This document shows positions 45,124 through 57,997 of a DNA stretch of 64,000 nt, in pieces. The stretch spans positions 3,370 to 67,369 of IMG/VR virus record IMGVR_UViG_3300032312_000528; one strand, written 5' to 3'. A program made the translations under genes and the position numbers. Each line of letters begins with the position of its first letter. The stretch's first letter is position 1. The notes under the pieces are model-generated. The model made no database searches, was not told the origin of the DNA, and saw only the letters and a program-made list of their open reading frames with translations. This stretch comes from a virus (Duplodnaviria > Caudoviricetes).

Positions 45124-45342
45124 ATGACAAGCCAATTAAAAGCACGCGTAAAGAGATGCAAGTATGCTCACCTGATTACTGAGGAGTTATTGAAAGAAGG
45201 TGAAAGCCAAGAGTGGGTCAGCAGATATGGTGGTAGAGGTTTAGGGTGCGAATTGCTTCCTGACGAGAGACGCATCACCTCCCAAGCCTTTGGAGACCTC
45301 ATCATTGACATCCTAAGGCATAGACAAACCAAACTAGTATAA
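45124..45342 (+). CDS. Hypothetical early protein (72 aa)
   Basis: Start moved to ATG 45124 after the A-rich leader. Confidence 0.55.
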   Translation: MTSQLKARVKRCKYAHLITEELLKEGESQEWVSRYGGRGLGCELLPDERRITSQAFGDLIIDILRHRQTKLV

Positions 45343-45377
45343 GGTGACCAGAGGGAGTTCGAATCTCCCTCTACTAG
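45334..45377 (+). ncRNA. Mini-tRNA-like element 1
   Basis: CTAGTA-TAAGGTGACCA-GAGGGAG-TTCGAAT-CTCCCTC-TACTAG. Confidence 0.75.
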
Positions 45378-46123: not shown

Positions 46124-46167
46124 AGGGTGGATGGTCTTAGCGAGGGGCTCGACTCCTCTCGCACCCT
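46124..46167 (+). ncRNA. Mini-tRNA-like element 2
   Basis: AGGGTG-GATGGTCTTAG-CGAGGGG-CTCGACT-CCTCTCG-CACCCT. Confidence 0.75.
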
Positions 46168-46189: not shown

Positions 46190-47182
46190 ATGAAAAAGTA
46201 TCAAGTAAAACTGACTCGCGTATGGGAAACATATGCAGAAATCGAAGCACTAACAATGGCTGACGCTCAGGCGATGTATGACTCTATGGTCGAAAGCGGT
46301 CTGATGGCTCAGAAAGAACTAGAGCAAATGGGCATCTCTGATGAGAGCCACAAAATTACTGAGCTAAACCAAAGCGATGACAAGACCTATGTGCTATTTG
46401 GTAGCGACATGGTAAGGGTTGCTGACAATACCTCGCTAAACGCCAAAGCAATTGCAGAGACGATTCACAAAGGAGTGAATAGCATGACCAATCTGCAAGT
46501 TTATGAACCCAACACACCAATAGGATGCATCATTGAGTCGGTTATTGGATGGGGTGACTACATGGTCATTGGGAAAGCGAAATACGATGAGATAATAGCA
46601 GAGGTCTCCAAGTTAGAATCGCCAGTCTCAGAGCCTACACAAAGCGTTTTAAAGGCATGGCGTGACAATGACCAAGTAGAGGGTCAATACTACGCTAGAA
46701 AGTGCGACATCACGGGCGAAGGCATGTACGAGGGGTGGGTTGTAAGTGGTGGTGAGACCTACATTAAGTACGAAAGCGACGCGATTGAATACTGCCGAAA
46801 GCATTGGAATCAGACCTTGCAAGAGGCTTATGACGAAAGCGAAAAGAACGGAGGTGACTCATTCTATTGGACGTCATGGGAGGATGACGAAAGCGATTAC
46901 CAATATCGCTTTGTAAATGGCGTGCTAATTGATGAGGATAGCGAGCACTTTGCATATCAAATCGAAGAGCCTATAGAAAGCGAGCCAAAGCATGACTACT
47001 TCTCACCTACCGAGGAGACTATGCATCGCATGGACATGGTCTTGGATGACCTCGCTAAGATACGAGAGTGGGCAGTTCAGCACAAAGCACCTGAAGAGAT
47101 ATTGGTCATGTTCAGCAATATCGAAATAGCGTGCGACCTCGACGATAAGGAGTCTCTCGGTTGGTCAAAGTACAAAGATTAA
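46190..47182 (+). CDS. Acidic multi-domain early protein (330 aa)
   Basis: Long ORF; no family recognised. Confidence 0.7.
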   Translation: MKKYQVKLTRVWETYAEIEALTMADAQAMYDSMVESGLMAQKELEQMGISDESHKITELNQSDDKTYVLFGSDMVRVADNTSLNAKAIAETIHKGVNSMTNLQVYEPNTPIGCIIESVIGWGDYMVIGKAKYDEIIAEVSKLESPVSEPTQSVLKAWRDNDQVEGQYYARKCDITGEGMYEGWVVSGGETYIKYESDAIEYCRKHWNQTLQEAYDESEKNGGDSFYWTSWEDDESDYQYRFVNGVLIDEDSEHFAYQIEEPIESEPKHDYFSPTEETMHRMDMVLDDLAKIREWAVQHKAPEEILVMFSNIEIACDLDDKESLGWSKYKD

Positions 47183-47230
47183 CTGACGAGCCTTCAGGAG
47201 GCGAAACGAGGCGAAAGCCTTGTCTTAATC
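47177..47230 (+). ncRNA. Type I hammerhead ribozyme; predicted cleavage after C47224
   Basis: GATTAA-CTGACGA-GCCT(TCAGG)AGGC-GAA-ACGAGGC(GAAA)GCCTTGT-C-TTAATC: all core nucleotides and three stems present, GUC cleavage triplet. Confidence 0.93.
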
Positions 47231-47244
47231 ATAAAATATATATC

Positions 47245-48135
47245 ATGAACCAAACAATTTTCAATCAGACCCTAGACCTTTTAGAATCTACAAACCTAAA
47301 TTGGTCAGTAACAAAAGAGCCTTTATTCACTGCTGACGGCAAAGCATCCGAGACCTTTGGAATGTATCGCTCAGACACCAATTCATGGCTTGGAAGCGTG
47401 GGTAACAAGTACGCACCCATGCAGAACCACACGCTAGCTGAGACCATCGTAATGGCATCGCAAGGCATCCAATGTCAAAAGCATAGAGGTGGCTCTCTGG
47501 ATGGTGGAAGCAAGGTGTTCATCCAATGCGAACTGCCTGACGAGTACATTGGCAATAGTGGTGTAAAGCGTTGGATTACTGCCCTGAACTCGCATGACGG
47601 CAGTTCATCAATCGGCTTTGGCTCGACCTCTCAGGTGGTCTTTTGTCAGAACATGTTCCACAAAGCGTTAAAGGAACTAGCAAAGTTCAGGCACACATCA
47701 TCTGCCGAGGAGCGTGTGCGTGTGGCGTCAGAGGACTTGAACAAAGCGTTATTGTCAGACAACATCCTGATGACCGACTTTAAGCGTATGGCAGACCTTA
47801 AGATAGGTGAGGAGGTCATTGAGCGTGTAATCCGTCGCATATTCACCTTGGACGCAAAGCAGACTCAGACAAGCGAGGTGTCAAGCCTTAAGAAAAACCA
47901 AGTGACTGCATTCGCTGATAGCCTACAAACTGAAATCAACACCCATGGGCAGACATTGTGGGCGTTGTTCAACGGAGTGACAAGGTACACCAACCACCAC
48001 GCCTCTCCAAAGGACGCTGAGGCAAAGCAAACCTACCTGATGGTTGGTGGTGGCTACAAAAACAATCTGCTAGGCTTTGAGGAGTGCATGAAGTGGCTAG
48101 GAGAGAACACAAAGCAAGTGTATTCATTGGCATAA
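47245..48135 (+). CDS. DUF932 family protein (296 aa)
   Basis: LNWSVTKEPL, LGSVGNKYAPMQN, GGSLDGGSKVFI, LNSHDGSSS, VFCQNM; start at ATG 47245. Confidence 0.85.
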   Translation: MNQTIFNQTLDLLESTNLNWSVTKEPLFTADGKASETFGMYRSDTNSWLGSVGNKYAPMQNHTLAETIVMASQGIQCQKHRGGSLDGGSKVFIQCELPDEYIGNSGVKRWITALNSHDGSSSIGFGSTSQVVFCQNMFHKALKELAKFRHTSSAEERVRVASEDLNKALLSDNILMTDFKRMADLKIGEEVIERVIRRIFTLDAKQTQTSEVSSLKKNQVTAFADSLQTEINTHGQTLWALFNGVTRYTNHHASPKDAEAKQTYLMVGGGYKNNLLGFEECMKWLGENTKQVYSLA

Positions 48136-48140
48136 AGCCT

Positions 48141-48184
48141 AGGGTGGATGGTGAGCAGTGGGGGTTCGAATCCTCCACCACCCT
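48141..48184 (+). ncRNA. Mini-tRNA-like element 3
   Basis: AGGGTG-GATGGTGAGCA-GTGGGGG-TTCGAAT-CCTCCAC-CACCCT. Confidence 0.75.
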
Positions 48185-48205: not shown

Positions 48206-48991
48206 ATGAAAAAACAAACCTACCTGATGACTCAAAGCCCAATGAACGCTCTAGTCGTTACCAATGCAATCGGACAGCTGAAAGCAATCGATGTCGATGG
48301 CGAGACCATGCAATTTATTATTGAAAGCCTTGGCATGAATGACCAAATGCTAAGGCAATTGATCATGGACAATCCCGAAAGCGACACCAAAGATTTATTG
48401 GCAGAAAAAATCTCTTTAAGCGACCAAGCGAGGTCTCAGATAAACGCTCCAAAGCCAAAGCCTTTATCCGACCAAGAGCGAGCACACCTAGACCAATTGA
48501 ATAACTTCATAGAGTATTGGTCAAGTGACGATGCCATGCGAGAGCGTATGTATGGGGTCGCACATGACTACATTGTTGAGGTTGTGCGAGACCTAGAAGG
48601 GGACGCAAAGCAACCTACATGGTTTGAAGTGTTCAAGACAAATTGGGATGGCTCAACCATGACAATAGCGTCCTTCGACATAAAGCAAGACGCTCTGGCG
48701 TTCGTTCTTAGTAGACCAAAGGGTCTAGGCATAGACGAGTGGACAATGGGTTCTGACGGCATCCCACATCAAGTGAGTGAACGCAAGTGCACATTGCAAC
48801 CAAACGAATATGTTCTATATGATAGGGGTAACAATAGTCTATTCAGCGACCCATACGGACGCATCATAGTCTATGGAGACAGAAAAGAGGCTGAGGCTGA
48901 CTGCCACGGAAACGAGTTGGTGATATCTTGCACTCAGCTACCAAGCGACCTTAGAAACGAACTACTAAAGCAAATCAACAATGAACAATAA
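48206..48991 (+). CDS. Multi-domain hypothetical early protein (261 aa)
   Basis: Start at ATG 48206 after the conserved leader. Confidence 0.65.
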   Translation: MKKQTYLMTQSPMNALVVTNAIGQLKAIDVDGETMQFIIESLGMNDQMLRQLIMDNPESDTKDLLAEKISLSDQARSQINAPKPKPLSDQERAHLDQLNNFIEYWSSDDAMRERMYGVAHDYIVEVVRDLEGDAKQPTWFEVFKTNWDGSTMTIASFDIKQDALAFVLSRPKGLGIDEWTMGSDGIPHQVSERKCTLQPNEYVLYDRGNNSLFSDPYGRIIVYGDRKEAEADCHGNELVISCTQLPSDLRNELLKQINNEQ

Positions 48992-57653: not shown

Positions 57654-57886
57654 TGGAGTACCAGAAGGTTGTCTCATATAGACCGGCAGACTATGATGAA
57701 GTCGGAGAGATGTTAGTCCCAGAGAGCTGGGATGACCTTTGGTTGGTGCAGTGGGGTGTATACCCAGTGTCTAAACAAGACTCGGATGGAGTATGGAGAT
57801 ATCACGAACAGACAGTGGCCATATGCAAGGATGAAACAGGAAAGATTCATATTGTCGATCCAGAGTTCTTAAGTTTAGTAAATTAA
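57653..57886 (+). CDS. Hypothetical protein (77 aa)
   Basis: Coupled ORF. Confidence 0.6.
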   Translation: MEYQKVVSYRPADYDEVGEMLVPESWDDLWLVQWGVYPVSKQDSDGVWRYHEQTVAICKDETGKIHIVDPEFLSLVN

Positions 57887-57892
57887 GTGGCA

Positions 57893-57960
57893 TCGCGGTT
57901 AGCTCAGTGGTAGAGTCCTTTTAGAAGGGGCGCATGGGTTCGATCCCCATACCGTGATCA
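57893..57960 (+). ncRNA. tRNA-like RNA with truncated anticodon arm
   Basis: Acceptor TCGCGGT/ACCGTGA, TA, D-arm GCTC-AGTGGTA-GAGT, short CCTT-TTAG-AAGG arm, T-arm ATGGG-TTCGATC-CCCAT; no 7-nt anticodon loop, no encoded CCA. Confidence 0.75.
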
Positions 57961-57997
57961 ATAAAGATCTTTCGTGTCATGGTATATTAATAAGTAA

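Follow-up and report, generated by a model that had tools for sequence, protein, structure and literature searches.

Hammerhead ribozymes that flank genes in phage DNA cleave in E. coli as well as in vitro, and they have been proposed to process long phage transcripts (Perreault 2011, PMC3088659). The same study described a haloarchaeal virus hammerhead located 13 nt 5' of a start codon and close to a 5' end that had been mapped. The element described here belongs to this kind of phage hammerhead, known since 2011: like its members it has the consensus core and lies between genes of phage DNA, on the coding strand, and here the two genes are co-oriented. It stands directly 5' of a gene for a DUF932 protein, and in the literature we found neither a link between DUF932 and hammerheads nor any function for DUF932.

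The window, by which we mean the whole 64,000-nucleotide stretch of DNA that was analyzed, makes up most of an IMG/VR record of 67,369 bases with an estimated completeness of 95%. Structural genes (terminase, portal, capsid) occupy the minus strand of this genome. The plus strand carries, from ~43.6 kb on, an early/replication block with the genes for GP88, DUF932 and a DnaB helicase, and all genes between 43.6 and 52 kb are co-oriented. The terminase matched only phages of Flavobacterium, Cellulophaga, Tenacibaculum and Maribacter, at 27–31% identity, and the distant relatives in culture have Flavobacterium, Cellulophaga and Tenacibaculum as hosts. The sequence is that of an uncultured phage that probably infects a member of the Flavobacteriia. 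These terminase relatives are consistent with the AT-rich leaders lacking a Shine-Dalgarno sequence that are described below. Cultured phage records contained no nucleotide match to 46190-48135.

The hammerhead motif and its flanking genes

The features at the center of this study are listed here by their positions in the window.

46190-47182, plus strand: upstream ORF, 330 aa, with its TAA stop (47180-47182) inside stem I
47177-47230, plus strand: complete type I hammerhead ribozyme (core and three stems, MFE fold, covariation, shuffle test)
47177-47182, plus strand: stem I, 5' strand GATTAA, which holds the TAA stop; its partner is 47225-47230 (TTAATC), and 5/6 pairs covary
47183-47189, plus strand: core C3-A9 (CUGACGA), invariant but for N7
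47190-47202, plus strand: stem II GCCT/AGGC with loop UCAGG (sequence, alignment)
47203-47205, plus strand: core G12 A13 A14 (sequence)
47206-47223, plus strand: stem III ACGAGGC/GCCTTGT, 7 bp including one G-U pair, with a GAAA tetraloop
47224-47225, plus strand: predicted scissile bond between C17 (47224) and U1.1 (47225), placed by the hammerhead consensus
47225-47244, plus strand: 20-nt AT-rich leader of the 3' product; it runs into the ATG with ATATATC and lacks a Shine-Dalgarno sequence
47245-48135, plus strand: DUF932 gene, 296 aa (PF06067, phrog_1221), with its ATG at 47245

The original prediction, of a complete type I hammerhead that overlaps a stop codon 5' of DUF932, was borne out by the sequence itself, by the orthologous position of the element in related phages and by covariation. 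The plus strand at 47177-47230 reads GATTAA-CUGACGA-GCCU(UCAGG)AGGC-GAA-ACGAGGC(GAAA)GCCUUGU-C-UUAAUC, and when it is compared with the core criteria of Perreault 2011 (PMC3088659) every invariant position is present (C3 U4 G5 A6 N7 G8 A9, G12 A13 A14, A15.1-U16.1, H17=C). The pairs adjacent to the core are all Watson-Crick (1.1-2.1 U-A, 10.1-11.1 G-C, 15.1-16.1 A-U), stems I, II and III have 6, 4 and 7 bp, and the topology is that of type I, with stem I open and loops capping stems II and III. The MFE structure of the 54-mer is the hammerhead fold (-16.4 kcal/mol, z -2.15). In 300 dinucleotide shuffles of the window, no type I hammerhead arose whose stems had 4/6/5 bp or more, and loose hammerhead matches averaged 0.06 per shuffled window; the 67,369-base record itself holds one hammerhead, at 47177-47230. 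By its sequence and conservation, the element is a genuine, conserved hammerhead, whose activity is predicted.

Neither the upstream ORF (46190-47182) nor the ORF at 48206-48991 was assigned to a family in Pfam or PHROG; these two ORFs, one on either side of DUF932, are paralogues of each other. A member of this paralogue family adjoins DUF932 in 6/7 loci compared (the window, L001, L003, L004, L005 and L007, where the L labels denote related loci), and in L009 a member lies one gene further downstream of DUF932.

Conservation with DUF932 and detection by RNA models

Loci of relatives were obtained through homology of the DUF932 protein, and a type I hammerhead was found directly 5' of DUF932 in all relatives with 60-98% amino acid identity (L001, L003-L008). 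In L009 (59% identity) and in more distant DUF932 loci there was no hammerhead at the 5' junction of DUF932; L009 has no element of any kind at this junction, and the element is therefore dispensable. Throughout the relatives that carry it, the hammerhead and DUF932 remain together while the upstream gene varies. A query of metagenome contigs with the DUF932 protein returned no relative. Among other phage DUF932 loci, one carries a DUF805b RNA motif (RF02914, 37.9 bits) directly 5' of the gene, in the position of the hammerhead (L014:1446-1478), and another has a phage-encoded tmRNA (Rfam, 82.6 bits) just 3' of it (L032:2430-2788).

In an alignment of 11 sequences, 98.9% of cells were paired and 12/16 pairs had changed on both sides, a result that 0/500 shuffles matched, and slid controls paired at 32-37%. 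The aligned sequences had been pre-picked by a scanner demanding at least 3 bp per stem; the orthologous position of the element is independent of this scanner. L001 has kept the ribozyme next to a diverged upstream coding flank; its ribozyme differs only in loop II and by two changes that preserve pairing, A-U to G-U in stem I and G-U to A-U in stem III.

An Rfam hammerhead scan, which had been put forward as a check of the original prediction, did not support it: no hammerhead model reached its gathering score for the element (scan of 46900-47500), and at an E-value threshold, applied to the window only, the best scores were 16–17 bits, for RAGATH-1 and for a permuted type III alignment. The Rfam 15 hammerhead models likewise reached gathering score in none of the loci L003, L004, L005, L007, L047 and L064. 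We attribute this failure to model coverage, and the threshold is not a biological criterion. A covariance model that we built from phage homologues scored the window element at 66 bits (E 4e-17) and all of its 17 matches at 39-77 bits, and since the Rfam models stay below threshold where this model is positive, routine annotation misses this phage subgroup. RAGATH-1 (RF03152), the best Rfam alignment, has the type I topology, the same core and a long stem III like the window element, but it differs in adding a hairpin on the 5' side and in having a minimal stem II, and the window scores 17.2 bits against its gathering score of 56.3. We rejected membership in RAGATH-1 because the corresponding upstream hairpin is part of a coding sequence and is not conserved in L001.

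The wider class was explored with a pattern scan of IMG/VR, which gave, among the matches listed, at least 153 type I hammerheads (at least 141 of them unique) from at least 120 loci. All of the following counts likewise apply among the matches listed. Stem I is exactly 6 bp long in 136/153 and is flanked by an A on each side (132/134 and 119/134), and the class consensus of loop II is U-N-A-W-U. The stop codon of the upstream ORF starts between -10 and +1 of C3 in 93/129, being the UGA of the core itself in 26, and the distance from cut to ATG has a median of 26 nt. Downstream genes are mostly small and of unknown function, the named ones being GP88 (4), ArdC-N (2) and ArdA (1). A further scan of metagenomes for the exact stem II of the window found 41 type I hammerheads in other contexts, none of which adjoins DUF932 or the flanking paralogues.

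Measured against this class, the window element keeps the consensus U and A of loop II as well as the flanking A's of stem I, and carries a rare G at the last position of loop II, where a U stands in 108/134 of the matches listed and in 38/41 of the metagenome hammerheads; with this terminal G, loop II could be closed by a U-G pair and a tertiary contact made weaker. Hammerheads depend on a tertiary contact of loop II with distal stem I to cleave fast at low Mg2+. No consistent pseudoknot emerged when we looked for pairing of loop II with nucleotides 3' of stem I: 5 bp are possible in L004 and L005, but the window, L001 and L003 cannot form them, and the pseudoknot was not adopted. The locus at 47177-47230 is thus a clean, comparatively validated example of a phage hammerhead subgroup that the current RNA catalogue does not detect, characterized by a 6-bp stem I, a U-N-A-W-U loop II, an abutting stop codon and a leader of ~20-40 nt.

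On one viral contig, a 3.8-kb stretch (L064:461-2410 and L064:2639-3764) contains five hammerheads of type I along with three Pistol ribozymes (Rfam 40-54 bits), with one ribozyme ahead of nearly every small gene, and a repeated TAACCCTAAAT motif is found 3' of 4/5 of its hammerheads.

Elements at neighboring junctions and the role of the ribozyme

Other gene junctions of the same block are occupied by a different kind of folded RNA.

45334-45377, plus strand: tRNA top-half mimic (T-arm, UUCGAAU loop, acceptor-like stem) before GP88, overlapping the stop codon at 45340-45342
46125-46166, plus strand: tRNA top-half mimic before the ORF at 46190
48142-48183, plus strand: tRNA top-half mimic in the slot after DUF932

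Each of these mini-tRNAs consists of a T-arm with a UUCGAAU-type loop, a stacked acceptor-like stem (12-13 bp in total) and an 11-nt connector containing ATGG. They directly follow stop codons and are succeeded by the same AT-rich leader, AAATATATC-ATG, which ends ATATC-ATG. Both stems covary across 16 mimics (three from the window and 13 from relatives), with 94% of cells paired and 10/11 pairs changed on both sides. ARAGORN and Rfam called no tRNA at the three neighboring junctions, and we therefore treat these elements as tRNA mimics, not as tRNA genes; they are presumed RNase P/Z sites. Elsewhere in the window, at 57885-57965, a tRNA-like sequence with acceptor, D-like and T arms (T-loop TTCGATC) was also not called by ARAGORN.

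The two types of element exchange with each other. At the junction 3' of DUF932, a mini-tRNA is present in the window, L001, L003, L004, L007 and L009, and a hammerhead in L005, L006 and L008, and several unrelated hammerhead-bearing contigs carry mini-tRNAs too, on the same strand as the hammerheads. Given this exchange and the shared layout of stop codon, folded RNA, short leader and ATG, both element types appear to fill one functional slot. One operon and its relatives thus show a self-cleaving ribozyme and tRNA mimics occupying the same gene-junction slot, which supports the idea that phage hammerheads punctuate polycistronic mRNAs. In the loci with two hammerheads, the stem I strands flanking DUF932 are GTTTAA/TTAAAC and GTTTAG/TTAAAC (L005:1407-1462 and L005:2390-2449; also L006 and L008); in such a pair, the downstream ribozyme could take up the 5' end of the ~1-kb RNA again by base pairing after excision, a geometry that would permit circularization.

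This analysis observed a conserved, covarying motif in a stereotyped layout, and two element types that replace each other at one slot. The reading that in our judgment probably accounts for these observations, on comparative evidence, is that a functional self-cleaving hammerhead punctuates a polycistronic early transcript upstream of DUF932. Because the ribozyme travels with DUF932 as the upstream gene changes, and because the length of the leader is stereotyped, our best inference is that the hammerhead sets the 5' end of the DUF932 mRNA. The ribozyme would be transcribed within a polycistronic RNA of the plus-strand early/replication operon, fold immediately 3' of the upstream gene's stop codon, and cut between C47224 and U47225. 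The 5' product would keep its stop codon and have the compact body of the ribozyme, bearing a 2',3'-cyclic phosphate, as its 3' end; the 3' product would be the DUF932 mRNA, with a 5'-OH and the standard unstructured 20-nt AT-rich leader; the weak, A/U-rich stem I of 6 bp would let the two products separate. As a transcript punctuation or insulator, the element would do the same job as the neighboring tRNA top-half mimics, and endonucleolytic punctuation, by self-cleavage at the hammerhead and by RNase P/Z at the mimics, is the simplest reading of the two together. An operon-wide transcript is consistent with the same-strand genes from 43.6 to 52 kb and with a scan for sigma-70 promoters and terminators around the site, which found no excess over chance. 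Cleavage may in turn affect mRNA stability or translation, and in a host group without Shine-Dalgarno-driven initiation a short, defined leader may matter for translation.

A more elaborate role, close to the gating of folding by terminating ribosomes that the original prediction had raised, would have the ribozyme licensed by translation, and the feature that suggests it is the following.

47137-47201, plus strand: predicted alternative ('anti-ribozyme') helix, in which 47137-47166 pairs with 47177-47201 (folding prediction)

This helix would pair the last ~40 nt (~15 codons) of the upstream ORF with the 5' strand of stem I, the core and stem II, and would be opened only by ribosomes that translate and terminate there, thereby freeing the DUF932 mRNA. 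If so, the DUF932 mRNA would be released in step with expression of the gene before it and, more broadly, ribozymes and RNase P/Z-type tRNA mimics would be interchangeable, tunable punctuation modules of phages. The predicted helix is strong, with 21 interrupted base pairs and an MFE of -30.8 vs -23.2 kcal/mol with stem I enforced (z -2.9), and when 40-45 nt of the upstream sequence are included in the fold, the 5' half of the ribozyme is tied up in the predicted MFE structure (ddG 7.6-7.8 kcal/mol). That ddG is the largest of 149 hammerheads sampled and was reached by 2/200 shuffled upstream sequences, and the upstream stop codon does lie inside stem I; however, one extreme among 149 is expected by chance, and the helix is not kept in the closest relative, L001 (ddG 2.5, z -0.9). 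Class-wide, moreover, with the window as the exception, the fold suffers less interference from real upstream sequences than from shuffled ones (median ddG 0.40 vs 1.35 kcal/mol, p 5e-6), which argues for constitutive folding, and the abutting stop codon is common to hammerheads and mini-tRNAs, so that compaction or a shared need explains it as well as a gating specific to hammerheads. On these folding models, translational licensing seems unlikely.

The observation that the ribozyme and DUF932 stay constant while upstream genes differ among relatives would also fit a boundary or mobility module, in which the hammerhead mainly delimits a cassette of ribozyme, leader and DUF932, marking recombination joints or enabling RNA excision and circularization, with no tuning of expression. 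Elements have been gained and lost between close relatives, and the two hammerheads that flank DUF932 in L005, L006 and L008 have near-identical stem I strands. The genome of the window, however, has a single hammerhead, which makes excision between two ribozymes impossible here, and Perreault 2011 (PMC3088659) sought spliced or circular products and found none; the stereotyped spacing from leader to ATG also points to a role in expression, and we consider a mainly modular function quite improbable. Least of all do we expect the motif to be an inactive look-alike, arisen by chance or decayed: the lack of an Rfam match, the loop II variant and the competing helix would fit such an origin, but the 0/300 shuffles, the orthologous position, the covarying stems and the intact core make it very hard to credit.

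Comparison with known systems

Punctuation of the early transcript by a hammerhead, as preferred here, places the locus beside several described systems. With the hammerheads of Perreault 2011 (PMC3088659), the likeness extends to the downstream genes: ardA lies downstream in examples of that study, and ArdA and ArdC genes are also found downstream in the class to which the window element belongs. The window element differs from them in that it is of type I and present once, that its stem I is strictly 6 bp long, and that its phage is of the Flavobacteriia type, with leaders that lack a Shine-Dalgarno sequence; in addition, its slot is shared with tRNA top-half mimics, and its subgroup is missed by the Rfam 15 models. 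For the neighboring mini-tRNAs, the direct analogue is the plant mitochondrial t-element and mitochondrial tRNA punctuation in general (Forner et al. 2007, PMC1920247), where structured RNA between coding regions sets mRNA ends via endonucleolytic cuts. The t-elements are a functional analogue of the hammerhead as well, but there RNase P or RNase Z does the cutting in place of the RNA, and the setting is the organelle, not a phage (PMC1920247).

Hammerheads in RNA virus genomes resemble the window element in being of type I with a long helix III, in filling a short intergenic region and in cutting a few nt 5' of the start of the next ORF, which in those viruses yields a subgenomic RNA. They differ in that they face a eukaryotic translation machinery and have no conserved loop-loop features, whereas the window element is DNA-encoded and belongs to a bacterial virus. 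Synthetic insulators of the RiboJ type, which are engineered where the window element is natural, strip the upstream RNA context by self-cleavage and leave a fixed 5' leader, and in engineered multigene transcripts tRNAs and hammerheads are used interchangeably for processing.
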